Assembly: GCA_964494495.1 (NCBI GenBank)
Contig: CAZBQZ010000003.1
Location: 6,900-70,899, forward strand
Length of the DNA: 64,000 bases
Direction: 5' to 3'
DNA from: an uncultured Candidatus Saccharibacteria bacterium
GTDB taxonomy: Bacteria; Patescibacteriota; Saccharimonadia; Saccharimonadales; UBA4665
Shown here: piece after piece, positions 4,896 through 35,277 of the stretch
How positions within the stretch are numbered: position 1 is the first letter of the stretch
How the letters are laid out: the number at the start of each line of letters is the position of its first letter
Program-made: the position numbers and the translations under genes
The notes under the pieces: model-generated
Databases searched by the model: none
The model's input: the letters and a program-made list of their open reading frames with translations, nothing else
Told to the model about the DNA's origin: nothing

Positions 4896-6484
<1,589 letters not shown>

Positions 6485-6486
6485 AC

Positions 6487-7095
6487 ATGAGCGATCACAC
6501 ACCATGGCAACCAGTTGCGCAGGATCTGACTGCCCGGGCTACAAACATCCCTGGTCTGTTTGAATTTCAGCTGGATGTCCGCGGCGATAACCGCGGCTGG
6601 TTTAAAGAAAACTTTCAGCAAACCAAAATGCTGGCCGCATTAGATGCCATACATGCCGAGAACCGCGAGCTTATCAACAATTTTACGATTATCCAAAACA
6701 ACGTGTCGTTTAACAAAGAGTCCGGCGTTGCTCGTGGCATTCACGCCGAACCATGGGACAAATATATATCGATAGTTAACGGTGAGGCATTTGCGGCAGT
6801 TGTCGACTTGCGCAAGGGCGATACATTTGGCGTGGTCGAGACCTTTCGTCTTACTCCCAACAACGCCATCTTTGTACCGCGCGGCTGCGGCAATTCGTAC
6901 CAGGCGCTCACCCCGGACCTCGTATACACTTACCTGGTTAACGCTCACTGGTCGCCCGACGCTAAATATACGTTTGTAAACATGCGCGACCCCGAACTTA
7001 GCATCCAATGGCCGCTACCTATTACCGATGAGCTAATCTCGGACAAAGACAAAGCCCACCCCATACTTAAAGACGTAACCCCATTCGAGGCATAA
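6487..7095 (+). CDS. rmlC: dTDP-4-dehydrorhamnose 3,5-epimerase
   Basis: DNRGWFKENF, RGIHAEPWDKY, VVDLR and ISDKD motifs. Confidence 0.94.
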   Translation: MSDHTPWQPVAQDLTARATNIPGLFEFQLDVRGDNRGWFKENFQQTKMLAALDAIHAENRELINNFTIIQNNVSFNKESGVARGIHAEPWDKYISIVNGEAFAAVVDLRKGDTFGVVETFRLTPNNAIFVPRGCGNSYQALTPDLVYTYLVNAHWSPDAKYTFVNMRDPELSIQWPLPITDELISDKDKAHPILKDVTPFEA

Positions 7096-7102
7096 ACAAC
7101 AT

Positions 7103-7969
7103 ATGGACGACTCACGCATACTTATCATTGGCGCCTATGGACAGCTGGGCAAAGCGCTTAACGCACAATACCCCAACGCCATTGCCGTCGACCGCGACAG
7201 CTTCGACATGACCGATTGGGCCATGGTAGAGACCTACGATTGGTCAAAAATAGACATCATCATCAACGCTGCTGCCTACACCAATGTAGATGGCGCCGAA
7301 ACAGCCGAAGGCCGCGAGGCTTCGTGGAAAATTAATGCCACTGGCCCAGGATACCTAGCCAAAGTAGCTGCCGCACACGATATTACCTTGGTGCACGTCT
7401 CTAGCGATTACGTCTTTGATGGCACCAAAACTCCACATACCGAAGCCGAGGCCTACACACCCCTTGGCGTCTACGGCCAAAGCAAAGCTGCTGGCGATAT
7501 TGCCGTTAGTATTGCACCTAAGCACTACATTGCTCGTACCACATGGCTAATTGGTGATGGCCCCAACTTTGTGCGTACCATGATGAGTCTGGCCGAACGC
7601 AACATTTCGCCCACAGTAGTTGACGATCAGATTGGCCGCCTTACCTTTACGCCTGTACTGGTAAGTGCCATTCATCAACTACTTAGTACCAAAGCTGCCT
7701 ACGGTATTTACAATGCCACCAACGATGGCAAGCCCGCTAGCTGGGCCGAGTTTACTCGTCAGATCTTTACCGGTTTGGGTCGTACCGACCTAACCGTCAC
7801 CGGCACCACCACCAAAGAATATTTTGCCAGCAAAGAGGGTATTGCCCCACGCCCGTTGCAAAGCGCAATGGATCTAAGCAAATTAAAAGCAACCGGTCTT
7901 ACCCTGCCCGATTGGCGCGATGACCTCGCAGCTTACATCAAGACAGAGCAAGCTAAGCCAAAGGAGTAG
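7103..7969 (+). CDS. rmlD: dTDP-4-dehydrorhamnose reductase
   Basis: [41 protein letters not shown] and APRP motifs. Confidence 0.95.
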
Positions 7970-7970
7970 C

Positions 7971-8837
7971 ATGAAAGGTATTATTTTAGCTGGTGGATCC
8001 GGCACACGTTTATACCCTATTACCAAAGGCATTTCCAAACAACTAATGCCCATTTACGACAAACCCATGGTGTACTATCCACTCAGCACGCTGATGATGG
8101 CGGGCATTCGCGAAATCCTAATTATAACCACTCCCGACGACCAACCACAGTTCAAACGTCTGTTAGGCGATGGTTCACAACTAGGCTGTCGTTTTGAGTA
8201 TGCCGTGCAGCCCGAGCCCAAAGGCTTGGCCGAAGCATTTATCATCGGCGAAGATTTTATTGGTGACGACAAAGTCGCATTAGTACTAGGAGACAATATC
8301 TTTTATGGCCACGGATTTGGCGACAGTCTCAAGCACTGCACCGATCCAGATGGGGGTGTCGTTTTTGCCTACCCTGTAGCCGACCCAGAGCGTTATGGTG
8401 TAGTAGAGTTTAACCGAGAAATGCAAGCGGTTTCTATTGAAGAAAAACCGGCCGAGCCCAAAAGCAACTATGCCGTGGTAGGCTTGTACTTCTACGATAA
8501 CGACGTAGTACAAATTGCCAAAACCATCCAACCAAGCAACCGTGGCGAACTAGAGATCACTGCAGTCAACGACGCATACCTGCAAAGCGGCACACTTAAG
8601 GTGCAAACCATGGATCGCGGCACGGCCTGGCTAGACACTGGTACATTTGCCTCAATGAATGATGCCTCGCAGTTTGTAGAGGTTATCGAAAAACGCACCG
8701 GCCTCAAAGTCGGCTGCATCGAAGAAATAGCCTGGCAAGAAGGCTATATAGACGATGGCCAGCTTGTAGATCTTTCCGAAGAACTTACAAAAAGTGGCTA
8801 CGGTCAGTATCTCACCAGTCTACTTACCAAAGACTAG
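7971..8837 (+). CDS. rmlA: Glucose-1-phosphate thymidylyltransferase
   Basis: [40 protein letters not shown] and AWLDTGT motifs; AAGGAG SD before ATG 7971. Confidence 0.97.
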
Positions 8838-11120: not shown

Positions 11121-11756
11121 ATGTCCTTCTACCACCCAGGGACAATTCGCCATCGTCACCAACCAGCGGGCGGGCGAAGCCTAACCGATTACGAAAGGCA
11201 GTTGCAGTTCGATCGTGGCAATTTGCGCGACCAGCGTGTACTAGATTTGGGCTGCGGACCAGAAATGAAGCTAGCCTACCACTTAGGCCTACTGGGTATT
11301 ACCGATCAGGTTATCTCGCTCAGCCCAGGCTTTTTAAGCGCAACTCATCGGCGTAATGCCTCGCAACGCAACCGCACGCTAGGCGTGGCTGCAGTTGGGC
11401 AAGCGCTTCCTTTTGCTGATAATTCTTTTGACATAGTGCTGAGTTTACATATGCACGAACACTTGCAGCGCAACGATGTACCCCAAGTACTATCTGAAAT
11501 GGCTCGCGTGCTTGCTCCAGGTGGCATTGCCAAATGGGGGCCCGTACTCGATCTTCCACACGATTTTGGATCGTTTGAGGACACCTCACACCTCTTGGGC
11601 GGCGAAGGGCTTACTGCACTGGACGTCCGCATAAGTAAACAGACTATTCCTCCCGAAGCCGTAGCACCCATCACCTACAAAGACGCGTTCGACACCCGCC
11701 ACTACAACGTCCCTAGCTGTATATTTGTGCTAGAAAAAGCACCAGCCAATGCCTAA
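11121..11756 (+). CDS. Class I SAM-dependent methyltransferase
   Basis: VLDLGCG motif I, ALPFADNSFDIVLS and EMARVLAPGG. Start set at ATG 11121, just after the upstream stop. Confidence 0.88.
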   Translation: MSFYHPGTIRHRHQPAGGRSLTDYERQLQFDRGNLRDQRVLDLGCGPEMKLAYHLGLLGITDQVISLSPGFLSATHRRNASQRNRTLGVAAVGQALPFADNSFDIVLSLHMHEHLQRNDVPQVLSEMARVLAPGGIAKWGPVLDLPHDFGSFEDTSHLLGGEGLTALDVRISKQTIPPEAVAPITYKDAFDTRHYNVPSCIFVLEKAPANA

Positions 11757-12694
11757 GCAGTGCGAAAGTACTCGATGGTTTTGGCCAAGCCTTCGTCTAA
11801 CGCAACTACCGGTTTCCAGCCCAACAGCTTTTGGGCCTTGGCAATGTCTGGCTTGCGCTGCGTGGGGTCGTCGGGACGGGCAGACTGAAACACCAATTGT
11901 GAAGCGCTGTCGGTTTGAGCGATCACCTTTTGCGCTAATTCTAACAACGTAAACTCGCCGGGGTTACCAATATTGATAGGGCCTTCCTGGCCCGAATCAA
12001 TCAGCTGGAGCAAACCGGCAATTTGGTCGGATACATAACAAAAACTGCGTGTTTGTTTGCCGTCGCCGTACACGGTAATGGGCACACCGGCCAATGCCTG
12101 GACGATAAAGTTAGACACCACGCGGCCATCGGCCGGATCCATGTGCGGGCCATAGGTATTAAAGATACGAACCAGAGCGGTGTCTACCCCGTACTGGTGT
12201 TTGTATACCCAAATAAGTGCCTCGGCAAAACGCTTGGCCTCGTCGTACATGGCGCGGGGGCCATAGGAGTTAACGTTGCCCCAATATGATTCGGGCTGCG
12301 GGCTCACCTGCGGTTCGCCGTACACCTCACTGGTAGAAGTGTGCAAAAATCGAGCGTTATCGCGCTGGGCCAAATCCAACAAATGTTTTACGCCCAACGA
12401 GCCAACCATAAGAGTTTCGACGGCGTATTGCTCGTACTTTGGAATACTGGCTGGCGAAGCCATGCTGACAACCAAATCGTATTTTTGGCTGGCAACTTTC
12501 GTGGGTAATGGCCGGGTAATGTCGTGTTTTACAAAGCTAAATGCTGGGTTTAGCTCTAGTTGGGCAATGTTTACTTTTCGCCCGGTTAACAAATTGTCTA
12601 CGCAGACTACTGTGGTACCCCGCGCCAACAGTGCCGCGCACAAATGCGATCCCAAAAAACCAGCGCCTCCGGCAACCAATGCCCGGTGGCTCAC
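11753..12694 (-). CDS. uxs: UDP-glucuronate decarboxylase (UDP-xylose synthase)
   Basis: GGAGFLGSH, MASPASIP, TSTSEVYG, YWGNVN, YDEAKR, RIFNTYGP, DGRVVSNF, RSFCYVSD, NIGNPGEFT and DDPTQRKPDI are all UXS signatures. Confidence 0.92.
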   Translation of the reverse strand: MSHRALVAGGAGFLGSHLCAALLARGTTVVCVDNLLTGRKVNIAQLELNPAFSFVKHDITRPLPTKVASQKYDLVVSMASPASIPKYEQYAVETLMVGSLGVKHLLDLAQRDNARFLHTSTSEVYGEPQVSPQPESYWGNVNSYGPRAMYDEAKRFAEALIWVYKHQYGVDTALVRIFNTYGPHMDPADGRVVSNFIVQALAGVPITVYGDGKQTRSFCYVSDQIAGLLQLIDSGQEGPINIGNPGEFTLLELAQKVIAQTDSASQLVFQSARPDDPTQRKPDIAKAQKLLGWKPVVALDEGLAKTIEYFRTA

Positions 12695-13998
12695 GCTGAC
12701 TGGCCCCGGCCAATACCTTCGTACACTAGGCCGGCTGCGCGCATGGCTTCGGGTTCAAAAATATTGCGGCCGTCAAAAATCATTTTTTTGGCCAGGCTGG
12801 CCGCCAGTATCTTGGGTTCGGTACTCTTAAACTCAGCCCATTCGGTAACCACCACAAGTACGTCGGCATTCTTGAGTGCGCCGTGGGCACTGTTGGCATA
12901 GGTAACAACATCGCCTAAGGCAACCTTGGCGTTAGCGATCGCTTCGGGGTCGTAGGCCACTACTTTGGCGCCGCGGCCCACAAGCTCACGAATAATATCT
13001 AGCGACGGGGCCTCGCGAATATCGTCGGTATCTGCCTTAAACGCAATGCCCCACACGGCAATAGTTAGCCCGCTCAAGTCTTCGCCCAAGCGCGCTACCA
13101 TTTTGGCTATCAGCACTTGCTTTTGGCGGGCGTTAACATCCATAACGGCGTTAAGCAGTTTAAAGTCGTAGTCGTGCGCGGCGGCCACACGCTGCAGGGC
13201 CATAACATCCTTAGGAAAACAGCTGCCTCCGTAACCAATACCGGGGTACAAAAAGCGGTGTCCAATACGTTGGTCGTGCCCAATGCCTTCGCGCACCTTT
13301 TCTACATCGGCACCAATAATGTCGCACAGGTTGGCAATCTCGTTCATAAAGCTAATCTTCATGGCTAAAAACGAGTTAGCGGCGTACTTGGTCATTTCGG
13401 AAGAAGCCTCGTCCATACATAAAAGCGGCACGTCGTTAGTAGTAAATGGCAGGTACAACTCCTGCATTACGGCGCGAGCTTTGTCGGATGATGTCCCAAT
13501 AACAATGCGGTCGGGCTGCAAAAAGTCGCTCACCGCAAAGCCTTCGCGCAAAAATTCGGGGTTAGACACCACATCAAACGGCACGTCGGTATGCTGAGCA
13601 ATGGCGGCGCGCACCTTTTGCGCCGTGCCCACCGGCACGGTGCTCTTATTAACAAACACTGTGTAGCCAGAAATTACTTTGGCAACTTGTTGCGATGCAG
13701 CAAGCACAAAACTCAGGTCGGCCTCGCCATCGCCCTTTGGCGGGGTGGGCAAAGCAAAAAAGATAACCGCCGGGTTGTCGCTTTTACTAAGCGCCGTCTT
13801 AAACTGCAAACGCCCGCTGTCGTAATTTTTGTGTACTAGATCGCTGAGACCTGGCTCATAAATAGGTATGTCACCTTTTTGCAGGCGAGCAACCTTATAC
13901 TGGTCGATATCAATACACACCACATCGTGTCCCACTTCAGCCAAGCACGTACCCGTTACCAAACCAACATACCCTGTCCCAATAATTGCGATCTTCAT
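12691..13998 (-). CDS. ugd: UDP-glucose 6-dehydrogenase
   Basis: IGTGYVGL, KSTVPVG, SNPEFLREG, KYAANSFLA, GYGGSCFPKD, AFKADTDDIRE and DGRNI motifs. Confidence 0.96.
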   Translation of the reverse strand: MKIAIIGTGYVGLVTGTCLAEVGHDVVCIDIDQYKVARLQKGDIPIYEPGLSDLVHKNYDSGRLQFKTALSKSDNPAVIFFALPTPPKGDGEADLSFVLAASQQVAKVISGYTVFVNKSTVPVGTAQKVRAAIAQHTDVPFDVVSNPEFLREGFAVSDFLQPDRIVIGTSSDKARAVMQELYLPFTTNDVPLLCMDEASSEMTKYAANSFLAMKISFMNEIANLCDIIGADVEKVREGIGHDQRIGHRFLYPGIGYGGSCFPKDVMALQRVAAAHDYDFKLLNAVMDVNARQKQVLIAKMVARLGEDLSGLTIAVWGIAFKADTDDIREAPSLDIIRELVGRGAKVVAYDPEAIANAKVALGDVVTYANSAHGALKNADVLVVVTEWAEFKSTEPKILAASLAKKMIFDGRNIFEPEAMRAAGLVYEGIGRGQSA

Positions 13999-14027: not shown

Positions 14028-14088
14028 GTTCAACCTGAGTATTGTTGTATATTCAGGTTTTGACCGCCCGGCGAATAGGTCGTATACT
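14028..14088. promoter_or_regulatory. Divergent promoter region: TTGACC-N17-TATACT (+, 14060-14088); probable TTGAAC-N17-TAGAGT (-, -35 at 14028-14033); imperfect 11-bp inverted repeat between them
   Basis: Hexamers and spacers counted directly; inverted repeat AACCTGAGTAT-N6-ATATTCAGGTT at 14032-14059. Confidence 0.6.
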
Positions 14089-14122
14089 CTGGGAGAGATA
14101 GCATTAAGTGAGGGTACATACT

Positions 14123-15172
14123 ATGCGAGCACTCGTTACCGGCTCTGCCGGACTCATTGGTTCAGAGGCGGTAAAGTTCTTTGCCGAAAAGGGCTTTGAA
14201 ATTATTGGCGTAGACAATAACATGCGTAGTTACTTCTTTGGGGAAGAAGCTAGCACCGATTGGAACCGCCAAAAACTCCAAGACTTGCTCAAAGACAAAT
14301 ACACGCACGTACAGGCCGACATCCGCGACGACAAGGCTATCGAAGCCGTGTTTAAAAAACATGGCAAGTTTGATATCATCATCCACACCGCCGCACAACC
14401 GTCGCACGACTGGGCTGCCCGCGAACCCTACACCGATTTTAGCGTTAACGCCCAAGGCACGCTTGTGATGCTCGAAAATATGCGTAAGCACTCGCCCAAA
14501 GCGGTGTTTATTTTTACCAGCACCAACAAAGTGTATGGCGATACCCCCAACACCCTGCCGCTTATCGAACTCGAAAATCGCTGGGAATTGCCCAAAGATC
14601 ACCCCTTCTACAAGGGCATCGACGAAAGCATGAGCATCGACCAAACCAAGCACTCTATTTTTGGCGCCAGCAAAGTTGCCGCCGATGTTATGGTGCAAGA
14701 GTACGGCCGCTACTTTGGCTTTAAAACAGCAGTATTCCGCGGTGGCTGCCTCACCGGCCCGTCGCACTCCGGCGCCGAGTTGCACGGCTTTTTGGCTTAC
14801 CTTATTAAGTGCATTTACAGCGGCAAAAAGTACACCATCTTTGGCTACAAGGGCAAACAAGTACGCGACAACATTCACTCGCACGATCTCGTTAACGCCT
14901 TTTGGCACTTTTACCAAAAGCCACGATCTGGCGAAGTATACAACATGGGTGGCGCCCGCAACTCTAACATTTCTATGCTCGAGGCTATCGAAAAAATCGA
15001 AAAACTACTGGGCAAAAAAGCCAATTACGAGCTAAGCCCCGAAAACCGTATTGGCGACCACATCTGGTACATTTCCGACGTTTCTAAGTTTAAAAAGCAC
15101 TATCCAGGGTGGGATTTTGAGTACGACATCGACGCTATTCTGAAAGAAATGTGCGCGGCAGTGCAGGCCTAG
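14123..15172 (+). CDS. Extended SDR, CDP-tyvelose/paratose 2-epimerase-like, with Phe at the catalytic Tyr position
   Basis: [33 protein letters not shown] and GKQVRDNIH motifs; the YxxxK position reads FGASK. GAGGG SD before ATG 14123. Confidence 0.85.
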
Positions 15173-15178
15173 GCGACC

Positions 15179-16255
15179 ATGAGCATAGCAAAATACAAGC
15201 GCATTTTAATTACCGGCGGTGCAGGTTTTGTAGGGTCTAACCTGGCGGTAATGCTCAAAAAAGACCTGCCCTCGTCCGAAGTTGTGTGTCTAGACAACCT
15301 CAAACGCCGCGGCTCCGAGCTGGCCGTAAAGCGCCTGGCCGCTGCTGGCGTTACCTTTGTGCATGGCGACATTCGCAATACCGAAGATTTGCAAATGGAT
15401 CGCATTGACCTACTTATCGAATGTGCTGCCGAGCCTTCGGTAATGGCTGGTATTAGCACGTCGCCCAACTACCTTATTAACACCAACTTGGTAGGCACAC
15501 TCAATTGTCTGGAAATGGCGCGCAAAGACGACGCCGACGTAGTGTTTTTGTCCACCAGCCGCGTGTACCCCATTGCTCACATCAACAACCTCAAGTTTAA
15601 AGAAACTGGTACTCGGTTCGAGCTGGTAGAAACGCAAGAAATGCCCGGCGCAAGCCAACACGGCATTGCCGAACATTTTCCACTGGACAAGCCGCGCTCG
15701 CTATACGGCGCCACTAAGCTGATATCCGAGATTATGATCGGCGAGTATGTGGACACGTACGGTCTGCGTGCCATTGTTAATCGCTGTGGCGTTATTACGG
15801 GCCCATGGCAAATGGGCAAAGTAGACCAAGGTGTGTTTGTGTTGTGGGTGGCCCGCCATTACTTTAAAAAGCCGCTCAGCTACATTGGCTTTGGTGGCCA
15901 AGGCAAGCAGGTACGCGACTTTATTCATATTGCCGATTTGTACCGCGCTGTTAAGCACCAACTAGCCGACTTTAACAAATACAGCGGCGAGGTCTACAAC
16001 GTAGGGGGCGGCCTAGAAAACAGTGTGTCGCTACAAGAGTTGACCAAAATGTGCGAAGAGGTAACCGGCAACCACATCGAAATTGCTTCAGTTATTGACG
16101 AGCGCCAAGCCGACCTTATTAGCTTTATTACCGACAGCCGCAAGTTTAAAGACAAGTCTGGCCTAAAGTGGGAAAAAGGTCCGCGCGAAACCGTCAAAGA
16201 CATTTACGACTGGATCCGCAACAACGAAGAAGATTTGCGTCCCATCTTAACCTAA
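15179..16255 (+). CDS. Extended SDR, CDP-tyvelose/paratose 2-epimerase-like, intact YxxxK
   Basis: TGGAGFVGS, STSRVYP, YGATK, RCGVITGPWQMGKVDQG and GKQVRDFIH motifs. Confidence 0.87.
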   Translation: MSIAKYKRILITGGAGFVGSNLAVMLKKDLPSSEVVCLDNLKRRGSELAVKRLAAAGVTFVHGDIRNTEDLQMDRIDLLIECAAEPSVMAGISTSPNYLINTNLVGTLNCLEMARKDDADVVFLSTSRVYPIAHINNLKFKETGTRFELVETQEMPGASQHGIAEHFPLDKPRSLYGATKLISEIMIGEYVDTYGLRAIVNRCGVITGPWQMGKVDQGVFVLWVARHYFKKPLSYIGFGGQGKQVRDFIHIADLYRAVKHQLADFNKYSGEVYNVGGGLENSVSLQELTKMCEEVTGNHIEIASVIDERQADLISFITDSRKFKDKSGLKWEKGPRETVKDIYDWIRNNEEDLRPILT

Positions 16256-16269
16256 GGTATACATATATT

Positions 16270-17019
16270 ATGAAACTGTCTGTTGTCATCCCCGCCCATA
16301 ACGAAGAAGGTTCTATCGAAGAAACCGTTCGTGCCTTTCATAACGAGCTACACAAAGAAAACATCAACCACGAAATAGTTGTCGTTAACGACAACAGCAA
16401 AGACAGCACCGAAGACATTTTGCGCCGCTTGCACAAAGAGATCCCTCAGGTACGCTATGTAAACAACACTCCGCCCAATGGCTTTGGCTTTGCCGTGCGC
16501 AAAGGCCTAGAGTCGTACAAAGGCGACTGTGTGGCGATTGTTATGGCCGATATGTCCGACCGCCCAGTAGATCTTGTTACCTACTTTCGCACCATGGAAG
16601 AAGGCGATTACGATGCCGTGTTTGGCTCGCGCTTTATTAAAGGCGGCAAAACGTTTGACTACCCAGCATCCAAGCTATACCTTAACCGCCTCACCAATAG
16701 CATTATTCGAGTACTATTTGGCACGCGTTATAACGACACCACCAACGCATTTAAGCTCTTTAAGCGCGAAACCATTGACGGTGTACGCCCCTTTTTAAGC
16801 CACCATTTTAACCTCACCGTCGAACTACCGCTCAAAGCTATTGTGCGCGGCTACAGTTATGCTGTAGTGCCCAATCATTGGACTAACCGCAAGGTAGGCG
16901 AATCCAAGCTCAAAATTAAAGAGATGGGTAGCCGCTACTTTTACGTTATCTTATACTGCCTGGTCGAGAAGTGGCTATCCCGGGGTGACTATCAAAAAGG
17001 TAAGCCGCGCGCCTCGTAA
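16270..17019 (+). CDS. GT2 polyprenol-phosphate glycosyltransferase (DPM-synthase-like)
   Basis: LSVVIPAHNEE, VNDNSKD, MADMSD, GSRF and DTTNAFK motifs. The track start at 16168 overlaps the upstream gene. Confidence 0.9.
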   Translation: MKLSVVIPAHNEEGSIEETVRAFHNELHKENINHEIVVVNDNSKDSTEDILRRLHKEIPQVRYVNNTPPNGFGFAVRKGLESYKGDCVAIVMADMSDRPVDLVTYFRTMEEGDYDAVFGSRFIKGGKTFDYPASKLYLNRLTNSIIRVLFGTRYNDTTNAFKLFKRETIDGVRPFLSHHFNLTVELPLKAIVRGYSYAVVPNHWTNRKVGESKLKIKEMGSRYFYVILYCLVEKWLSRGDYQKGKPRAS

Positions 17020-17028
17020 AAGATTACG

Positions 17029-19977
17029 ATGTTATATGCCACGCTGACACCAATCCTTTTGATTGTGCAGGCTGCATGGTTTATAACCCCCGGTTTGATT
17101 GTTGCACTATATTTGCAACGCACTAAGCGCATTGCTCCACTCTATATTGTAGCTATCAGTATTGTTGTAAGCAGCTTGCTTGCGTACGGCGTATTTTGGG
17201 CATACATTGCCAGCCCGGGGTTTGGACGAGCGCTTAGCTGGATCATTGGCATCACCAGCCTACTAGCGCTGTATAAAATATGTGCCAATAAAACAACGCG
17301 CCGGGTTCTTTTTGCATTCGATGTAGGCGTGCCACTTATCCTATGGTTGGTTGCCTGTTTTGCATATGCATCGGTTACATTTGGTTGTCGCACCGTTAAT
17401 ACGGTTAGCGCACCTGATCAATTTTGCTATGTTTCTGGCATTACCTTTGACAATTTGCTGCCCAAAATATTTGCCAATAATGTGTTTCATGGACAGGCCA
17501 AAACGCTGATAGGGGATTGGCACGGCAGCGATAGGCCGCCATTGCAAAGCGGAGCAGTGCTGCTGGAATCGCCGCTTACGCAATCGTCGGGCGTGGGTAT
17601 TATGAGCTATCAATTACTGGCAACGTTCCTGCAAATGGCCTGGATACCTGTTGTTTGGTTACTTGGCCGTAAACTGCGTCTCAACAATAAGCAGCTGGCC
17701 GTACTGCTTGTATTTTGCCTATGTAGCGGCTTTTTCTTCTTTAATAGTATTTTTACGTGGCCCAAACTGCTGGCCGGTAGCCTGGGTGGCATTGCGCTGG
17801 CGCTGTTGTTATTCGAAAAACCGTCTAGGGCAGGGTGGTCGCTGGCTGGCGCTGCGATTGGTACCGCACTACTCTCCCATGGTGGTGTAGCGTTTACCTT
17901 TGTTGCTATTATCCCGCTACTGCTCACCAAATGGTTCTTCCCTGGCTGGAAGATTGCATTGAGCGCGGTAGCGGCAGTTTTGATTATATTTGCGCCCTGG
18001 ACCGCCTACCAACACTTTTATGACCCTCCAGGCAACCGAGTCCTTAAATGGGAGATTGCTGGTGTTATACCCATTGATGATCGGTCGTTCGACCAAGCCC
18101 TGGTCGATTCGTATAAAGCCGCGGGCGTACGGGCAATAGTGCACAATAAGCGAACTAACGCCACCACACTTATATACAACAAAGCCGGATCTAGCTATTT
18201 GTACAGCACAGGCAAACTAGGCAAACTGCGAGACGCTCAATTCCGTTTTGTACTATTTAGTATTGGTCTCTTAAACCTGGGGTGGTTCATACTGCTTGTG
18301 CCGCGCTGGCGAAAGCGCCTGGCTAGTTCTGCAATAGATATGTCAAAGTTATGGCTTATGCTAGGCATTGCCGGAGCGGCGCTTGTTGCCTGGGTGGCTC
18401 TTATGTTTGGCCCATACAGCACTATTATTCACCAAGGGTCTTACCTAACAATGTTGCTTCTGTTTGTGTGCCTTGGTGCAGCTGTGACCACCATGCCAAA
18501 ACGTATCCTTGCCGGGTACACCGCCCTGTACGTGCTCTGCTTTGCAGCACTTTGGATATTCACAATATATGTTCGGCCGCTGCACCTGCATAGCGGGCCA
18601 TATATCGTTTGGTCGTGTCTAAGTACGGCCGCGCTTGCAGGTCTGCTAGGTGTGGTAGCATGGATCGAGCCTCGTACTATTCGGCAACGATTGCGGCGTA
18701 CTTGGGCTTTGCTAGGCAGCGCCTATCAACGGTCCGAAGCCTGGCTTAAAAATCATCCGTCTATTGTGCTCTGGGGCACCGTTGGTCTTTGTGCGGCACT
18801 AGCCTTAACGCGCCGGCCAGAAACCATTACGCAGGCGCAGTTCTGGGCAGAGGATGGCAGATACTGGTACGCACAAGCATACGCCCACGGGTGGTCGGTC
18901 TTGTTTGCCACCTACAGTGGCTACTTTGTGGTTATTTATCGGGTCGTTGCCGAGGCTTCGATGCTCTTGCCACTTCATGTGGCCCCGCTCTTTTTTAACC
19001 TTGTAGCTCTTGGCATTCAGCTTTTGCCAATCGTATTGCTTATGAGCAACCGCATGCGATCAATTATCCCAAGCCGATTGTTGGCTCTTGGCTTGTGTGT
19101 TGTATATATTGGGATACCCAACGCCACCGAAGTCTTTGCTAACCTAACGAATATTCAATGGCACCTTGGCATAGCATCTTTCTTGGTGCTTATTGCCTAC
19201 ATACCGCAAAGCCGGGCATGGCGCGTCTTTGACTTTACGGTGCTTGCCCTCACCGGTTTGAGTGGTCCGCTGGTAATACTTCTAGCGCCCATTGCTGGCT
19301 TTCTGTGGTGGCGCATGCGCCGTGCTACACAATGGCGTAATCTGATTTTGCTGGTGGCTCTGTCTTGTTTGCAAATAGCAAGCATTCTGTTTATAAGTCA
19401 CTTTCACAGAGTCGGTAGCGGCCAACCCGATGCCAATGGCCTCTATTTGCTCGAAATGGTTGTGGGGCAAATTTTTACCGGTGGGTTGCTGGGCCAAATG
19501 CACGTCAACTTATTGTATGGCAGCGTGCTCGCGATGCTTGGCGCGTTGGTACTGGGCGGAGGCATTATGGCTTACTGCACGCTTAGAGGGCCACTGTGGC
19601 TCAAGCTGTGTAATGCCTACTTCGTCATACTGTTTATATCGATGCTCCTGTCTATCAAGCCTATACCAGGCTTTGATACATGGTGGGGGCTGGCTAATCC
19701 CGGAGGTGGGCAGCGGTATTGGTATATTCCTATGTTTATCTGGATAATCAACTTGGTATGGGTTACCTTTAAAGCCAAACTTTTGCCCCTGCGCATTGCT
19801 ACCGCCCTTTTGCTAGCTATACTAGTACTTGTAGGCATGCCAAACAGCTGGCGTTTACCGGCGTTACCAGACTTGCAATTTAGCAAGCACGCACAAGCCT
19901 TCGAGCAAGCGCCAGCAGGCACACATGCACATATACCAATCAATCCGGGGTGGGAGATGGATCTTGTCAAAAAATAA
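17029..19977 (+). CDS. 982-aa polytopic membrane protein; fusion of two GT-C-like modules
   Basis: More than 20 hydrophobic segments. The N-module has DWHGSDRPPLQ, FTWPKLL and HQGSY. The C-module begins TRRPETITQAQFWAEDG and is paralogous to the next gene. Confidence 0.75.
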   Translation: MLYATLTPILLIVQAAWFITPGLIVALYLQRTKRIAPLYIVAISIVVSSLLAYGVFWAYIASPGFGRALSWIIGITSLLALYKICANKTTRRVLFAFDVGVPLILWLVACFAYASVTFGCRTVNTVSAPDQFCYVSGITFDNLLPKIFANNVFHGQAKTLIGDWHGSDRPPLQSGAVLLESPLTQSSGVGIMSYQLLATFLQMAWIPVVWLLGRKLRLNNKQLAVLLVFCLCSGFFFFNSIFTWPKLLAGSLGGIALALLLFEKPSRAGWSLAGAAIGTALLSHGGVAFTFVAIIPLLLTKWFFPGWKIALSAVAAVLIIFAPWTAYQHFYDPPGNRVLKWEIAGVIPIDDRSFDQALVDSYKAAGVRAIVHNKRTNATTLIYNKAGSSYLYSTGKLGKLRDAQFRFVLFSIGLLNLGWFILLVPRWRKRLASSAIDMSKLWLMLGIAGAALVAWVALMFGPYSTIIHQGSYLTMLLLFVCLGAAVTTMPKRILAGYTALYVLCFAALWIFTIYVRPLHLHSGPYIVWSCLSTAALAGLLGVVAWIEPRTIRQRLRRTWALLGSAYQRSEAWLKNHPSIVLWGTVGLCAALALTRRPETITQAQFWAEDGRYWYAQAYAHGWSVLFATYSGYFVVIYRVVAEASMLLPLHVAPLFFNLVALGIQLLPIVLLMSNRMRSIIPSRLLALGLCVVYIGIPNATEVFANLTNIQWHLGIASFLVLIAYIPQSRAWRVFDFTVLALTGLSGPLVILLAPIAGFLWWRMRRATQWRNLILLVALSCLQIASILFISHFHRVGSGQPDANGLYLLEMVVGQIFTGGLLGQMHVNLLYGSVLAMLGALVLGGGIMAYCTLRGPLWLKLCNAYFVILFISMLLSIKPIPGFDTWWGLANPGGGQRYWYIPMFIWIINLVWVTFKAKLLPLRIATALLLAILVLVGMPNSWRLPALPDLQFSKHAQAFEQAPAGTHAHIPINPGWEMDLVKK

Positions 19978-21253
19978 CACGATACTAGTTCGCCGCGCAT
20001 TGCGCGTAGCCAACACGTGGCTAGCCCAGCATCAAACTATAACCACAGTTGGCACATTTCTTCTGTGTGCATTATTGCTTTTCTCGCGGCGGCCAGATAC
20101 CATAACCAACGCGCAGTTCTGGGCAGAGGATGGAGCAGTCTGGTATACCGATGGGTACGATGTTGGCCTAACACAAACTATTTTTCGTACCTATGCCGGA
20201 TACCTAGCCGTCATGCATCGCCTTGTTGCGGCAGGAGCAGCACTGCTGCCGTTCCATTTTGCTCCCCTTATATTCAATATCCTTGGGTTACTCTTCTTGT
20301 TGTTGCCGGTAATACTTATTGTTAGTAAACGGTTCGCTGCCATTATCCCCTACCGCCTACTGGCCATAGCAATCGCAGTTATATATGTAGGCATCATGAA
20401 CAACGACGAGATTGTTGGAAACCTAGCAAATATACAATGGTCGCTAACTCTATTGGCTTTTTTGATAATCATTGCTAAACCCAGCCAGGAATTACGCTGG
20501 CGTATTTTTGACGGGGCTGCGCTTATTGCCGCCGGATTATCCGGCCCCTCGGTCATATTGCTAACTCCTATCGCCCTTTACGTTTGGTGGCGCACAAAAG
20601 ATAAGCAAAATAAAATGCAGGCCATTATTTTAGGTTGTGTGTCGTTTGTTCAAGTTGCCGCACTTACCGTAATTAGTCATTATCCGCGCGTTGGTGCGCA
20701 AAGCGATGCCAACATGCAAGATTTTGTGCGCATGCTGGTGGGGCAAATATTTGCAGGTGGACTATTGGGCGTCAAATATATTACTTACTATTACAATCAC
20801 CATCACGTTATGTACCTGCTGGCGTGTATTGGTATTAGCCTTGTGGTGTATGCGGCAATAACTGGTCCGCGCTGGCTGAGGCTCTTTAGCGTCTACTGGC
20901 CGCTCCTAGTGATAAGCATGCTATACTCGCAGCGTCCCGTTCCAGGGGCAAATATCTGGCACGGGCTTACCAACCAGTTTGGTGGCCAGCGGTATTGGTT
21001 CGTGCCAATCGTTGGCTGGGTTGCTACAGTATTGTGGATAGCGCTTGCTGCTCCGCACAAAATCATGCGCCTTGTGGGATGTATACTCGTAGCGCTCCTA
21101 CTTGTTGTAGGTATCGGGCAAAACTGGCGTATTGCACCGCTGCCGGACTTGCACTTTCAGCACTATGCCAGACACTTCGAGAAGCTTCCAAAAGGAACTA
21201 AATACACGCTGCCCATCAACCCTGGGTGGCAAATGACCTTATATAAAAAGTAG
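19964..21253 (+). CDS. Polytopic membrane protein, GT-C/GtrII-like; paralog of the C-terminal half of the upstream gene (start uncertain, TTG 19964 or ATG 19925)
   Basis: SRRPDTITNAQFWAEDG, YAGYL, NLANIQW, LSGP, GGQRYW and PINPGW are shared or closely matched with the upstream protein. Confidence 0.78.
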   Translation: MSKNNTILVRRALRVANTWLAQHQTITTVGTFLLCALLLFSRRPDTITNAQFWAEDGAVWYTDGYDVGLTQTIFRTYAGYLAVMHRLVAAGAALLPFHFAPLIFNILGLLFLLLPVILIVSKRFAAIIPYRLLAIAIAVIYVGIMNNDEIVGNLANIQWSLTLLAFLIIIAKPSQELRWRIFDGAALIAAGLSGPSVILLTPIALYVWWRTKDKQNKMQAIILGCVSFVQVAALTVISHYPRVGAQSDANMQDFVRMLVGQIFAGGLLGVKYITYYYNHHHVMYLLACIGISLVVYAAITGPRWLRLFSVYWPLLVISMLYSQRPVPGANIWHGLTNQFGGQRYWFVPIVGWVATVLWIALAAPHKIMRLVGCILVALLLVVGIGQNWRIAPLPDLHFQHYARHFEKLPKGTKYTLPINPGWQMTLYKK

Positions 21254-21270: not shown

Positions 21271-21909
21271 CTACTTCTCAAAGATGAGAAATGTTTGTTT
21301 ACCCATAATGCGCCACAAAAAGGGAAGCTTAAGGTATATCTTTACAAATGTTGCCTTAGCCGGGTAGCGACTTTGGGTAGTAAAGGGCACAAACCGCAAA
21401 ATACGTTTTTTGAGGCTAAAACCCAACGCCACAAAGGCTTCTTCGAGTGCGCGGTCGTCAATAGGGGTAATGTGGTCAAAAAACATCCAGTAATCCCTGC
21501 TCGCAAAACGAATGTTTGGCTGAAGAATCAAAACCTGGCCGCCAGGACGAAGCACGCGCTTAAACTCGTTGAGTGTTTTTACAATATCGTCGTGAGTAAT
21601 GTGCTCGAAGAAATTACTAACAAAAACCTTGTCGACGCTTTTGGCTGGCAAGGAAAGCTTGGTCGAATTGTCTAGCAAAAACGTCACATCCTTGCCGACA
21701 TATTTTTTGGAATCTTTGTTGATGTCGGCAGCGTACTTCTTCTTGCACACGACAGTGTTAATAAACTCACCGTAGCCGCACGGCACATCTAGCACCACAT
21801 CATTAGGGTCGACAAACTGTTGAAAGAACTCTTTTGTTAGTATGGTCCACAGCACTTTGCGCGTCTCTACATCACTAAAACGTTGACGATATACTTGGTC
21901 GATAATCAT
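21271..21909 (-). CDS. Class I SAM-dependent methyltransferase
   Basis: VLDVPCGYGEF, SNFFEH, RVLRPGG and DHITP motifs. Confidence 0.9.
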   Translation of the reverse strand: MIIDQVYRQRFSDVETRKVLWTILTKEFFQQFVDPNDVVLDVPCGYGEFINTVVCKKKYAADINKDSKKYVGKDVTFLLDNSTKLSLPAKSVDKVFVSNFFEHITHDDIVKTLNEFKRVLRPGGQVLILQPNIRFASRDYWMFFDHITPIDDRALEEAFVALGFSLKKRILRFVPFTTQSRYPAKATFVKIYLKLPFLWRIMGKQTFLIFEK

Positions 21910-22003: not shown

Positions 22004-23389
22004 CTACACGCCACCCCAATGAATGCTTCGCAGGTACTCTAGCCGCTTCCATACAACTTCTTGGTTGGGGTAAAGCTTTAGCAGGCACGGGTCAGTCTCT
22101 TTGGCTGCTATATGGGCACATTGTTGCACGCCGTGTAGGTATACCGACTGCTGGCGCATCTGAATAATACCCTTGGGATAGTTGATGATTATGCCCTCTA
22201 GAAGCAGAGTAAGAGTAATGACCGCCAGGTATCGGCCTGCTACCGCCACCCTTTTGGGCGTAGCCGAACGTCGTAGCGTAACTTCGATAATCTTAAACAG
22301 CATCACAATAAACGCGATAAGCAAATACAGCGACAATGTCGTATAACGGCTAGAGTACGCTTGCTCTACGCCAAGCCCCAAGCGCGACATATCGGTGGTA
22401 ACAGCGGCGATGCAGGCGTACAGCGCTAGGCATATCCAGGGGAGCATGCTGGTGCTGAACTCCTTGCGATAGTAGCGCCACATATAAACCGAGCCGGCAA
22501 TAATTGCTGCTATATATAAAACCGCTACTTTTACCGATAGCAAAAAATCGGTCACTACCGGCCGGGCAATGTAGACCAACAGGTAGTGCACAAATGGGCC
22601 AGGTTCGTGCAAGAAGAGCGTCTTAGATGGCTGATACGTTGGATTGTGATACCCAATATAATGAATACCGACAAAAAGTGCGGCCAAGCCAAGCCACAGC
22701 CACACCATGCGGCGCATATCTTTGCGCACTAAAAAGATGGGGATACATATAAGCCACACAAACATACCGCTGGCCAACGAATACGTTGCCAGTACTGCAC
22801 CAGCCGCCGCAACAAACACACGACACAGTAACGAAGCCTGCTTCCAGGTTGTAAGCGCCCACACTGCAATAATTAAGCCCGCGATGTTTAGGTACCATTG
22901 TATTTGCCAGCCCCATAGCCAATCTTCCCATGCAAGGGGAGAGAAAAACACAAGACTGCTTACTAACAACGCCCCGGCGCGTAACCAAACATTAGTAAAT
23001 GTACGGCGCAAAATAGCGTACAAAAATCCAAAGCTAACGGCGGCTACAATCACGCCAAAGGCCACCTCGAATAGCGTATTCCAGTGCGTTAACCAAGCCA
23101 AAGTAAACATTACCAAACGCGGAAAGAAGATGCGGTGTTCGTTATGCTGGGCAAAAAAATCAGCAAACCCCAAAGTGCCGGTATGATACTTTTGAATGAG
23201 CGTTACAAACTCCCACTGATCCCAAAACGGCACATTTACTGCGTAATGTGCAACAAGGGCAATCAAAAGCAGCAGCGGCACACCGGCCGCCCCAACTATC
23301 CACAATTCGCGCTTATGGGTACGCGCAAATCGCGGCACGGTCTCTGGCAAAGCCTGCAGCCTGGTCATTAATCGATTGACTATATCCAT
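22004..23389 (-). CDS. Polytopic membrane protein, GT-C-like
   Basis: NVPFWDQW acidic motif in the first extracytoplasmic loop, QHNEHRI and SSRY; about 11 TM segments. Confidence 0.65.
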   Translation of the reverse strand: MDIVNRLMTRLQALPETVPRFARTHKRELWIVGAAGVPLLLLIALVAHYAVNVPFWDQWEFVTLIQKYHTGTLGFADFFAQHNEHRIFFPRLVMFTLAWLTHWNTLFEVAFGVIVAAVSFGFLYAILRRTFTNVWLRAGALLVSSLVFFSPLAWEDWLWGWQIQWYLNIAGLIIAVWALTTWKQASLLCRVFVAAAGAVLATYSLASGMFVWLICIPIFLVRKDMRRMVWLWLGLAALFVGIHYIGYHNPTYQPSKTLFLHEPGPFVHYLLVYIARPVVTDFLLSVKVAVLYIAAIIAGSVYMWRYYRKEFSTSMLPWICLALYACIAAVTTDMSRLGLGVEQAYSSRYTTLSLYLLIAFIVMLFKIIEVTLRRSATPKRVAVAGRYLAVITLTLLLEGIIINYPKGIIQMRQQSVYLHGVQQCAHIAAKETDPCLLKLYPNQEVVWKRLEYLRSIHWGGV

Positions 23390-26507: not shown

Positions 26508-27944
26508 TTATACGTAAAAGCGATGCAGTAAGGTTAGTATACTACCGCCAAGGACTAGCCCAATTCCACACAATACAGCCACCTTTGGGCTAAATCGTCC
26601 CAAACCACGAACCTCGTACAGCCCATGCACAGCCAGTAGAATTAATGGCGCCACCATAAGATAGTATCGGCCCTGTATGCCTATTAACGCGGTACCGCCA
26701 AGCGAGTTCCAGTACATATACAAAAGTAGGTCTATAGTGCAAAACAAAGCCAGCGCTAACGCTAGCAATACCAGGCGTTGCGTTTTTCCCAAGCGCAACC
26801 GTATAGCGCCCATCGGTAGTGCGATTGCCAGAGTTGCAAAATAGGCCAACACCGCCCACAACGGCATTGCTGTATCGAGCCAACCAAAGACGCCAACAAA
26901 CTCGTAAATATTATTGTCGCCACCCAAAACATGCGTCGCAAAAACCGTATGCGCGTACCGAACAGGGTGGTGCAGCACAAAAGATAGCTGAGCATTAGGG
27001 GTAATAACTCTGTCGATCAAAAAAGGCGACTGTATATACGAATGCTGCGAAACCACATACCAGCAGCTAAACAACACCATAAACGCGGCAAGAATACTGG
27101 CCACATATTGCCACCGCATTCGCTTGTTACCAAACCTACTACCTGGAACAAACAAAAACAACAGGCCTACCAGAGCGTACGGCTGCTTGATGAGCCCAGA
27201 AATAAATACGAGCGCCGCCGTTAGTATCCATTCGCGCCTTGTTATATCGCCTTTGGTCAGACACATTCGCACAAACCAAGCAGGCAATAACAAACAAAAA
27301 CCTAGGGTCACTGCATCTGCAGAGAGTGAAGCCCCCTGAAAAATTGCCATAGGTGCTAGTGCCACAACCAAAAAAGCCCACTTTCCTATCAATGTAGTCC
27401 GTATGGCCCAATACGCCAGTGCCAGCCAAGCCACAAGCGTACATATACGCCCAACGTAAAACAAAACGAGCACCGACGAATCAAACAAGCGAGCTACCGC
27501 TATACCAACAGCTGCTGGCACATACGCCAGCGGTGAGTACAGCGCTGTATTCTCGAAATGAATAGGAGCTTTTTGGGCGCGATTAAGCGGCACATCCATA
27601 ATAGCTTTGGTCTGTGAAAATGACGCCCGGTGACTTTGAATAATCTCGGGGGTTGTCATTTTATTGGCTGTCGCTAGCAGGCTTTCGGGAAGCCGTCCGC
27701 CCACACCAAATGGAATATGCTGCGATGTCAGTCCACCCTCAGAAACCTGATATGCTCGTGCAAAGTGAGCTTGCTCGTCTGGCACCTGGTATGGTGGCAC
27801 CATAAAAACAAAAAGCAACCCAATAGGTATGCCAATCAATAGAAATAGCTGCTGAGGTTGGCACGATTGCAACCAAGCCAACAACAATTTTAGCCAAACC
27901 AGAATGCTATTTGGTCTCGTGATACTCTTCTTCGGCGTTAACAT
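26508..27944 (-). CDS. DUF2142-family GT-C-like membrane protein
   Basis: [36 protein letters not shown] and GIQGRY motifs. Confidence 0.85.
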
Positions 27945-29514
27945 GCCAAATATTCTCTTTGCTGGTTACGCCATTAATAATATTCTCAACGGCCAACATG
28001 GCAGTGAGCATAGAGTGGTCTTGGTTGTTGTAGCGGTGCAAGCCATTCCGCCCCACCAAAAATAGATTATCGATGTCGTTCAGGTAGTCCTTAATGACGT
28101 CTATTTGGTTGTAGGTTCCAAAGTATGCAGGGTAGGTCTTTTTCATGCGTATAATAACGCTGTCTTTCACATCTTTTTCGTCGATAATACCAATTTTGGC
28201 CAACTCAGAAGTAGCAAACTTTTTCATCGCATCGTCGGGGGTGTTCCAAAGTTTGTCGCCCTCGTTTACGAAGTACTCCATGCCAACCCATACAGTATTC
28301 GGATCTTTGACTAAATACGGGCTCCAGTTGTTAAAAATTTGCAGCCGTCCCACCTTTACGTCGCGTTCTTGTATATAAATCCAGTTGTCCGGTACTATAT
28401 CGTGTGGCGTTGGCGTGGCTGTCTCGTTTTTGATTTTAAGCTTGTCTAGCAATACGCCAACCGTCATAAAATCGCGGTACATAAGCCCATTGGCCACTTT
28501 TTTAACCTTAGTGGGCACTGGATCGCCCTCGAAACTATGTATTAAGTCCTTGATAGGCATGGTAGAAAAGAAATAGTCTGCCTTGTGTGTTTTTACAGCA
28601 CCCGTCTTTACGTCCCGCACTTTAACGCCAGTAATGCTTGAGCCCTTGTGAATAATACCAACTACCTCGTGGTGCAGTGTTAGCTCGCCACCCTTTTGCT
28701 TCACGATGTCGGCCACTGTCTCCCACATTTGCCCCGGCCCATATTTGGGGTACAAAAAGCGCTCAATCAAACTTGTTTCGGTCTTTTTCTGGGCAACGTC
28801 GCCGGTATTACCTTTTTTGGCAAGGCTTTTTGCCGCATGGGCAAGTGCCTTGGTAATAGACAGGCCTTTGATGCGCTGTGCGCCCCACTCGGGGCTAATT
28901 TTGCTGCAAGAGATGCCCCATACTTTTTCGGTATAGTCTTTAAAAAAGGTAAGGTATAGCTCGCGGCCAAAACGATTAATAAAGAAATCCTCGAGGGATT
29001 TCTCTGGCTTTATAGGCGACATGCGCGCCTTCATATAACTAGCGCCAATTTTGGCCATGCGTTTTGCGCCAAGAATTTTAACAGTTTGCGGATTGAGCGC
29101 TACCGGATAATCAAAAAAACTGCGCAAGTAGTAAATGCGTGATAGGCGCGACCGCACCAGCATCACGTTATCGACTTTCTCGGGGTCGGGCCCATCGTCG
29201 GGCAAATCGATGGCGCGCGTTTTGCCCTGGTATGTAATATCAACCTTACCCTCATCGGTAGGGGTGCCCTGTATGGGTAAAATATTCTTCCACCAGTCCA
29301 TAACTCGGTCGGACTTCGAGAAAAAACGGTGGCCACCAATGTCGATACGGTTGCCTTTGTAACGAACCGTCTTTGATATACCACCAATGTCACCAGAAGC
29401 CTCAAAAATAATTGGCTTGATGTTGGTTTTTTCTAAAAATTCGTACGCGGCGGTCAAGCCTGCCGGACCTGCTCCGATAATAAGAGCAGTTTGTCCCCTC
29501 TTTTTGTTCATCAC
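27907..29514 (-). CDS. FAD-dependent oxidoreductase, HemY/UDP-galactopyranose mutase-like superfamily
   Basis: GAGPAGL dinucleotide fold, [19 protein letters not shown] and [15 protein letters not shown] motifs. Confidence 0.85.
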
Positions 29515-29963
29515 GCTTTATTATTAAACAAAACAAACTTACGGGCAAGAAAATTCCAGAAAAAGACAAGCGCAGTAACCACTATCTTTGATAGCAAATA
29601 ATACACGCCCAGCCCACTTGTCATAATCCACATCAATAACAGCGTAAGCAGCAGGCCAATAACACCAATGCCCAAAAATATGCCAAATTCTGCGCGCCGG
29701 CTGGTAAGGGTGCGATTAGCAAATACCCATTTGGTGCTTATGACGTAGTTTGTGGCTACACCAAGGCAAAACGAAATAGTTGCCGACACCAAGTAAAAAA
29801 CATGCAAAAACTGGGTGAGCCCAAAAAGCGTAAAAAAATCGATGACAAAAGCCACAACGGCCACTACCAGATAACGTAGCAACTGAATGCCAGTATGGTT
29901 TGCTGGGTCAGTAGCAACTTTTCGAACCAAGGCCCTATGTCGTTCGGTTATAAACCTATCCAC
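29511..29963 (-). CDS. GtrA-family flippase
   Basis: [21 protein letters not shown] and WNFLARK; four TM segments. Confidence 0.9.
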
Positions 29964-33028: not shown

Positions 33029-33029
33029 A

Positions 33030-35275: not shown

Positions 35276-35277
35276 GA

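Follow-up and report, generated by a model that had tools for sequence, protein, structure and literature searches.

Can an extended short-chain dehydrogenase/reductase (SDR) act on nucleotide sugars after losing the tyrosine of its catalytic triad? The question is raised by two adjacent genes in a 64,000-nucleotide stretch (the window) of the genome of an uncultured Candidatus Saccharibacteria bacterium (GenBank assembly GCA_964494495.1, contig CAZBQZ010000003.1, positions 6,900 to 70,899 of the forward strand). The host genome measures 1.29 Mb and is 94.7% complete, the window is part of its contig 3, and the nearest homologues of the first gene carry the name Candidatus Saccharimonadales. 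Both genes encode SDRs that resemble the tyvelose epimerase TyvE. The first, gene 1, has Phe at the position of the catalytic Tyr, whereas its neighbor, gene 2, has Tyr. The Ser/Thr-Tyr-Lys triad is treated as defining the chemistry of extended SDRs, and a Tyr-to-Phe exchange is the standard way of killing such enzymes. Yet, Phe is native in the clade of gene 1, and few genes of the glycan loci are conserved as well as gene 1 in organisms that span ultra-small Patescibacteria, Nostoc, Azospirillum, Emticicia and Deinococcus. A native Phe combined with such conservation points to catalysis by other means, and probably also to a sugar or reaction not identified so far. Taken as a whole, the evidence leans, at slightly better than even, towards gene 1 being an autonomous, Tyr-independent enzyme that acts ahead of a module made up of gene 2, a family 2 glycosyltransferase (GT2) and a membrane enzyme of the GT-C fold.

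Gene 1 is an intact protein under strong constraint and not a decaying copy. Its open reading frame opens with a GTG at 14108, and the ATG at 14123 (MRALVTG) agrees with the starts of its homologues. The first-pass annotation, made from the letters of the window, had pointed to the Phe/Tyr difference and to a Gly-rich motif for nicotinamide adenine dinucleotide (NAD) in both genes, and the reading of the codons bore this out. Nucleotides 14651-14674 encode HSIFGASK, with TTT (Phe180) at 14660-14662, and nucleotides 15695-15718 encode RSLYGATK, with TAC (Tyr176) at 15704-15706; the NAD motifs read TGSAGLIGS in gene 1 and TGGAGFVGS in gene 2. The Lys of the YxxxK motif is retained in both proteins (K184 and K180, respectively). 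Both match PF01370 in Pfam (E = 1.1e-43 for gene 1 and 1.7e-40 for gene 2), and both have the features of the extended SDR fold, i.e., a Rossmann domain with an N-terminal GxxGxxG in a two-domain protein. An AlphaFold model of gene 1, built on 37 clade members, has a mean predicted local distance difference test (pLDDT) score of 95.9 and superposes on the TyvE structure 1orr with a template-modelling (TM) score of 0.90 and a root-mean-square deviation of 2.0 Å. Of the triad, gene 1 has T134 and K184, but F180 occupies the Tyr position; in a phmmer alignment, F180 falls on the catalytic Tyr164 of TaTyvE (9rl0) and K184 on Lys168.

A TTT codon is one transversion away from TAT, and a sequencing error or recent drift, by which the Phe would be unique to this genome, could be imagined. 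This explanation can be dismissed: HS[IV]FG[AV]SK is found in 120 of the 120 close homologues listed (84-100% identity), and the 82 orthologues compared, which represent many phyla, all have F180. In a library of 1.8 billion proteins clustered at 50% identity, the best 150 cluster representatives align F with position 180 in 129 cases, Y in 10, L in five, M in three and another residue in three, and the Phe pattern persists to identities of about 40%. When one genome per species was scanned, more than 590 gene-1-type loci emerged. The best 80 of these, at 62-85% identity, come from Patescibacteria, Cyanobacteria (Nostoc, Microcoleus), Bacteroidota (Emticicia, Runella, Flavobacterium), Proteobacteria (Azospirillum), Verrucomicrobiota, Acidobacteriota, Omnitrophota, Elusimicrobia, Planctomycetes, Myxococcaceae and one metagenome-assembled genome (MAG) of Woesearchaeota. 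Besides F180, the residues invariant in the 82 orthologues include the glycines of the NAD motif (G7, G10, G13), D31, D66, H88, Q92, S94, H95, D96, W97, S133-T134-N135-K136, S183, K184, R206 and R309, and H221 is kept in at least 90% of the clade. Literature searches found no characterized Tyr-less TyvE-like enzyme, and a search of the ESM Atlas returned generic names only. The clade is apparently very large, strongly conserved and unstudied, and its present annotation as 'CDP-paratose 2-epimerase' is almost certainly wrong.

The relation of the two genes was examined in a quick-search maximum-likelihood tree, rooted at the midpoint and excluding fragments outside 325-405 residues. The clade of gene 1 was split from gene 2 and the canonical TyvE-like proteins with 99% SH-aLRT support. 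Since gene 1 and gene 2 share 31% identity and fall into separate clades, they are best described as ancient paralogues and not as the outcome of a recent duplication. The Tyr-bearing members of the gene 1 clade are scattered among Phe-bearing ones, and Phe is the residue of the deepest branches. The QP[S/A]H signature is kept in most of the 10 Tyr-bearing representatives, C209 likewise in most, and H221 in all. Because Phe, Tyr, Leu and Met are all tolerated at position 180, and because the Tyr-bearing members are scattered and mostly retain the pocket signature, the hydroxyl at this position appears to be neither required nor harmful in the clade. One homologue of 740 residues (P0144) carries a LAGLIDADG-type intein of about 325 residues within the FGxSK motif, which it splits into FGA and SK: HSLFGA closes the N-extein, the first residue of the insert is C, and the C-extein restarts with SKAAGD. 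Inteins tend to occupy functionally critical sites, and this insertion was counted in favor of a working gene 1 enzyme.

If the canonical Tyr is not used, what could take its place? In TaTyvE, the triad consists of Thr124, Tyr164 and Lys168; other elements are the TNK segment (124-126), the VAM segment (83-85) and Gln205 on the sugar-closing loop. Met85 and Gln205 line the sugar pocket, the N125A mutant is inactive, and TyvE enzymes are tetramers (PMC13098431). In the Salmonella enzyme SeTyvE, the Y165F exchange abolishes activity (PMC12188384). Gene 1 keeps the TNK segment as T134-N135-K136, but VAM is replaced by P93-S94-H95, followed by D96, and Gln205 by H221. Gene 2 has Y176 and K180 at the positions of Tyr164 and Lys168 and keeps the Gln, but TSR stands for TNK and PSV for VAM. 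In the Pfam annotation of the first 36 kb of the window, which has rmlABCD, ugd, uxs, a ManC-like gene and PMM, no gene set for a cytidine diphosphate (CDP)-3,6-dideoxyhexose was present, the genes in question being those for Glc-1-P cytidylyltransferase, CDP-Glc 4,6-dehydratase, E1/E3 and paratose synthase. The conserved differences in the pocket-lining segments of gene 1 are His95, at the position of Met85, and His221, at the position of Gln205. A relocated Tyr, considered at first pass as a way for gene 1 to be a normally active epimerase by itself, was not found: Y226 and Y237 are clade-specific and near-invariant, and the alignment gives no sign that either reaches the nicotinamide. The conserved His residues look like better candidates than a Tyr for a relocated base; by alignment to 9rl0, the base may be placed at His95, His221 or Lys136.

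The same loss of the catalytic Tyr, together with a position 180 that takes F, Y, L or M, could be expected of a protein that has given up catalysis altogether. Gene 1 would then bind a nucleotide sugar or NAD(H) and serve glycosyltransferases, for example, as their carrier, scaffold or sensor. NmrA-like atypical SDRs likewise bind a dinucleotide and do not catalyze a reaction, and a role of this kind would suit a domain that is often fused or translationally coupled to transferases (see below). We regard this as unlikely. H95, D96, N135, K136, K184, R206, H221 and R309 are invariant or nearly so across phyla, and the degree of identity maintained among the best loci is more typical of a catalyst. 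Moreover, as described in the next paragraph, gene 2 needs gene 1 even in genomes where the genes lie apart, a dependence more easily explained by a metabolite that joins them than by a scaffold.

The distribution of the genes was surveyed in 301 genomes of Patescibacteria and 151 of Cyanobacteria. Among the Patescibacteria, gene 1 occurs in 10 genomes, gene 2 in five, in all of which it adjoins gene 1, and the GT2 in three of these five. Among the Cyanobacteria, gene 1 occurs in 21 genomes (in one with a stop codon), gene 2 in 13 of the 21 and the GT2 in the same 13. The pattern is thus nested: the set of genomes with gene 1 contains the set with gene 2, which contains or equals the set with the GT2. 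Gene 2 is always accompanied by gene 1 (5/5 and 13/13 genomes, respectively), whereas gene 1 occurs without gene 2 in 5/10 of the gene-1 genomes of Patescibacteria and 8/21 of those of Cyanobacteria. That gene 2 orthologues were found only in sampled genomes holding gene 1 supports a functional tie between the two. Such a tie does not need proximity, as the two genes lie on different contigs in six of the 13 cyanobacterial genomes holding both and are also unlinked in Emticicia aquatilis and Runella aurantiaca. Around 81 gene-1 loci, when orthologues within flanks of up to 10 kb were counted, gene 2 was present in 29, the GT2 in 31, both in 20 and neither in 41, and the gene order differed among the loci. 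A survey of this kind had been proposed at first pass as a check on the pairing; the Phe turned out to be conserved and the adjacency variable. A shortened gene-1 orthologue was seen in one cyanobacterium (G391:C1:4919191-4919796); it matches the first 206 residues only, has a TAA stop inside and is probably a pseudogene.

These counts bear on the obligate heteromer put forward in the first-pass annotation, in which gene 1 would be a dead pseudo-enzyme paired with an active gene 2. The idea is a natural one: the exchange found in gene 1 kills a canonical TyvE (PMC12188384), TyvE enzymes are oligomeric, and the two genes are 6 nt apart in the window and close together in more than a third of the loci (29/81). 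However, the direction of dependence is the opposite of that of a pseudo-enzyme serving an active partner, and is wrong for a regulatory pseudo-subunit, since it is gene 1 that occurs without gene 2 or on another contig. Gene 1 is also the better conserved of the two (62-85% identity among orthologues vs. 50-71% for gene 2), and its pocket residues are invariant. Finally, the fusions of gene 1 seen in the 150 representatives involve transferases and methyltransferases, and in none of them is the partner a gene-2-type domain. We consider the heteromer very improbable; gene 1 behaves as an independent member that can do without gene 2.

The loci that lack the module give an impression of what gene 1 may do alone. 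Gene-1-type domains are fused to a methyltransferase and a GT2 (807 residues), to a GT11 (628 residues), to methyltransferases (531 and 559 residues) and to a WecG/TagA domain (592 residues), and a separate WecG/TagA gene neighbors gene 1 in nine loci. On plasmid p2 of Azospirillum brasilense Sp7 (NZ_CP012916.1, 93523-95405; L122), a gene of this type lies between a phosphoglycosyltransferase and a TagA-family transferase. The start of this WecB/TagA/CpsF transferase overlaps the stop of the gene-1-type frame, which indicates translational coupling, and the same cluster holds UXS, GMD, another SDR and UGD. A second paralogue, on plasmid p5 (L121), has another SDR gene before it and a radical SAM gene after it. 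In a 0.6-Mb genome of Patescibacteria, gene 1 has seven GT4 genes around it, as well as genes for a C-methyltransferase and a polysaccharide deacetylase. All these contexts fit a gene 1 that supplies an activated sugar to soluble transferases.

As to the precursor of this sugar, the first-pass annotation suggested uridine diphosphate (UDP)-xylose, made by the products of ugd and uxs, which are indeed transcribed divergently from gene 1. In this window, such a supply is possible, and the two genes adjoin gene 1; an annotated UXS is found near the gene-1 type on the p2 plasmid of A. brasilense as well. UDP-xylose does not hold up as a general substrate. In the Patescibacteria sample, UXS (E<=1e-50) was detected in 68/301 genomes overall and in no more than five of the 10 that have gene 1, so that UDP-xylose can be a local precursor at best. 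Only three other loci, all in Patescibacteria, have a close uxs orthologue (50% identity or more) near gene 1.

Downstream of gene 2, the window encodes a GT2 of the polyprenyl-phosphate type (PF00535, E = 2.9e-26), as claimed at first pass. Its best matches in the PDB are the DPMS of Pyrococcus (5mlz, E = 1.6e-20), GtrB (5ekp) and ArnC, and D128, S130 and D131, which are invariant among its orthologues, agree with a GT-A enzyme of the DPMS/GtrB/ArnC type. The best NCBIfam matches (PgfS, dolichyl-phosphate hexose transferase, AglJ and ArnC) all score below the cut-off, so that no specific sugar can be assigned to the enzyme. GtrB, ArnC and the DPMS of Pyrococcus have C-terminal membrane helices, but no hydrophobic segment is present in the 249 residues of this GT2, which would make it a peripheral enzyme. 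In several Cyanobacteria, the frame of the GT2 is longer (426-484 residues, with about 175 extra N-terminal residues; L129:5374-6693 of G313 and similar places).

The first-pass annotation also had GT-C genes following the pair. No evidence for this was found in the two frames directly after the GT2, which encode polytopic membrane proteins of 982 and 442 residues and share no profile similarity with the family of the 22004-23389 gene in a profile comparison, whereas this latter gene, nearby, does have the fold. Weak relatives of the 982-residue protein occur beside the module at L047 (32% identity over 40% of the protein) and at the cyanobacterial L129 (26% over 275 residues). The predicted structure of the 22004-23389 protein (pLDDT 83.2, predicted TM score 0.84) was compared with the PDB using Foldseek. 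Most of the leading matches, including the top 16, are GT-C enzymes at a probability of 1.00, among them ArnT (5f15), AglB, STT3, AftA/AftB, PglB, DPY19 and ALG9; with TM scores of 0.40-0.50 and modest E-values from 2e-3, the structural support for a GT-C fold is moderate. The family has the invariant residues D57, H82, E84, R86 and E155, and in Cyanobacteria as well as other phyla, its members adjoin gene 2 and the GT2. It appears to be a GT-C family that has not been described before, and the protein of the window is likely to be the transferase that uses the polyprenyl-phosphate sugar. A methyltransferase that depends on S-adenosylmethionine (SAM) is a further companion, with homologues beside the module in eight loci and at the cyanobacterial L129 and L131. 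In Cyanobacteria, the order is GT-C, GT2 and gene 2 in one genome (G361), the same followed by the methyltransferase about 1 kb further on in another (G424), and gene 1, GT2, gene 2, methyltransferase and GT-C in a third (G313); gene 1 is either adjacent to the module or elsewhere in the genome.

The tight association of gene 2 with the GT2 brings up another rival, likewise related to a suggestion made at first pass. Here, the GT2 would act first and genes 1 and 2 would then oxidize and reduce the lipid-linked sugar, in a two-component epimerization like that of DprE1/DprE2. The three genes are contiguous in the window; in the 13 cyanobacterial genomes, the GT2 lies directly beside gene 2 in seven (the six with gene 1 on another contig and G301) and within about 3 kb in the other six. 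Against this, gene 1 is present in many genomes and loci that have neither the GT2 nor gene 2, where it is found among soluble GT4 and TagA-type transferases. In addition, neither protein contains a membrane segment or a flavin adenine dinucleotide (FAD) domain, and a Tyr-less oxidase is no easier to explain than a Tyr-less epimerase. Epimerization on the lipid by both genes thus seems improbable to us, and the proposed analogy did not hold at its central point, the FAD oxidase.

The reading that we prefer, an autonomous gene 1 ahead of the module, can be set out as a five-gene pathway towards a surface sugar. Gene 1 would be an NAD-binding enzyme that modifies a nucleotide sugar without using the SDR tyrosine; the base would come from elsewhere in the pocket, probably from His95, His221 and/or Lys136. 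It would act first and alone, and in many organisms, soluble glycosyltransferases would use its product directly. Where gene 2 is present, this conventional Ser/Thr-Tyr-Lys SDR would be a dependent add-on that converts the product of gene 1 further. The GT2 would then load the sugar onto polyprenyl phosphate, the SAM methyltransferase would probably methylate it, and the GT-C-fold enzyme would move it to an envelope acceptor outside the membrane.

Several points weigh against this scheme. Canonical C-2 oxidation is not expected for gene 1, because Y165F kills the TyvE of Salmonella. The catalytic activity of gene 1 is deduced from its conservation, and the roles proposed for His95, His221 and Lys136 were derived from a sequence alignment to 9rl0. 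No member of the clade that had been assayed or solved was found in the literature or the PDB. The genomes in the co-occurrence samples are related, and the counts given above are not counts of independent events. The GT2 could also precede gene 2, whose substrate would then be the lipid-linked sugar. The identity of the nucleotide was sought in the nucleotidyltransferase repertoire of small genomes, which gave no answer: two genomes of the Patescibacteria sample, G241 (0.6 Mb, 100% complete) and G136 (0.8 Mb, 94%), have no match to PF00483, PF12804 or GlmU, and each has a gene-1 orthologue and many glycosyltransferases.

The features of the locus are collected in the table. The promoter-like site upstream of gene 1 is the best-scoring site on the plus strand and lies 35 nt ahead of the ATG; the number of such sites across the region is not higher than in shuffled sequences. 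Further away, a full rmlB-rmlC-rmlD-rmlA set (5468-8837, plus strand) is found on one side. On the other side (26508-36084, minus strand), a second block encodes a DUF2142 protein, a flavoprotein resembling amine oxidases, GtrA, a rhamnosyltransferase of the WsaF type, a double GT2, a methyltransferase and an ABC ATPase of the Wzt type that has a C-terminal binding domain. The two blocks taken together suggest that an ABC-exported, rhamnose-containing wall polysaccharide adjoins the module.

Table. Features of the gene 1 locus, in positions of the window.
Feature	Position	Strand	Remarks
uxs	11753-12694	-	divergent from gene 1
ugd	12691-13998	-	divergent from gene 1
Promoter-like site (TTGACC, 17 nt spacer, TATACT)	14060-14088	+	divergent intergenic region upstream of gene 1; consensus match only
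Gene 1, TyvE-like extended SDR of the tyrosine-less 'QPSH' clade	14123-15172	+	349 residues; F180 in HSIFGASK
Gene 2, TyvE-like extended SDR with intact S/T-Y-K triad (T126, Y176, K180)	15179-16255	+	358 residues; starts 6 nt past the gene 1 stop
GT2, polyprenyl-phosphate glycosyltransferase type	16270-17019	+	ATG at 16270; 249 residues; no transmembrane segment
Polytopic membrane protein	17029-19977	+	982 residues; about 20 hydrophobic segments; same operon; no Pfam match
Membrane protein	19925-21253	+	442 residues; about 9 hydrophobic segments; operon; no Pfam match
Class I SAM methyltransferase	21271-21909	-	Pfam; recurrent module companion
GT-C-fold membrane protein	22004-23389	-	461 residues; no Pfam match; predicted structure

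The wider meaning of these observations can be put forward tentatively. With a chance that we place somewhat below even for this reading as a whole, the 'QPSH' clade would form a major class of nucleotide-sugar enzymes that spans phyla and relies on a Tyr-independent, probably histidine-based SDR mechanism, making a so far unrecognized envelope sugar. This sugar would be present in many bacteria and in the lineage of at least one archaeal MAG, and would be used either directly or by way of gene 2, the GT2, the methyltransferase and the GT-C enzyme. The nested dependence of the genes, taken together with the GT-C enzyme and the methyltransferase, amounts to a concrete and testable pathway, and genetics could draw on hosts that grow in culture, A. 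brasilense Sp7 and Nostoc among them.

Among the known systems, CDP-tyvelose (paratose) 2-epimerase (TyvE/RfbE, EC 5.1.3.10; 1orr and 9rl0) is the best match in sequence and fold for both genes (E = 8e-41 for gene 1 and 1.8e-35 for gene 2). Both share with it the NAD motif and the GKQVRD block of the extended SDR; as described above, gene 1 departs from it at F180, PSH and H221, and gene 2 at TSR and PSV. At the level of the pathway, the locus resembles the Arn pathway (Ugd, ArnA, ArnC, ArnT) and the Gtr/Pgf-type decoration systems, in which a nucleotide sugar is modified in the cytoplasm by SDR-type enzymes, a GT2 like DPMS, GtrB or ArnC loads polyprenyl phosphate, and a GT-C enzyme acts outside the membrane; ugd is adjacent here too. 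However, the window lacks the formyltransferase and decarboxylase domains of ArnA, the aminotransferase ArnB and ArnD, its GT2 is without the C-terminal helices, and its SDRs are of another clade. For an SDR fold that works without the canonical Tyr, there is precedent in the extended SDRs of the CapE/FnlA/WbjB type, which have a Ser-Met-Lys triad; they belong to another clade, have another residue in place of the Tyr and are kin to gene 1 only at the level of the superfamily. SimC7 is an equally distant precedent, with a different replacing residue again: this SDR lacks the triad and uses substrate-assisted catalysis (PMC5039031). Finally, the decaprenyl-phosphoribose 2'-epimerase DprE1/DprE2 is similar in that two proteins change the configuration at C-2 and feed GT-C enzymes. 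In that system, an FAD oxidase (DprE1) and a classical SDR (DprE2) both work on the lipid-linked sugar, whereas the two proteins of the window are extended SDRs, and gene 1 is found as well where no lipid-linked route, and no polyprenyl-phosphate GT2, is present.

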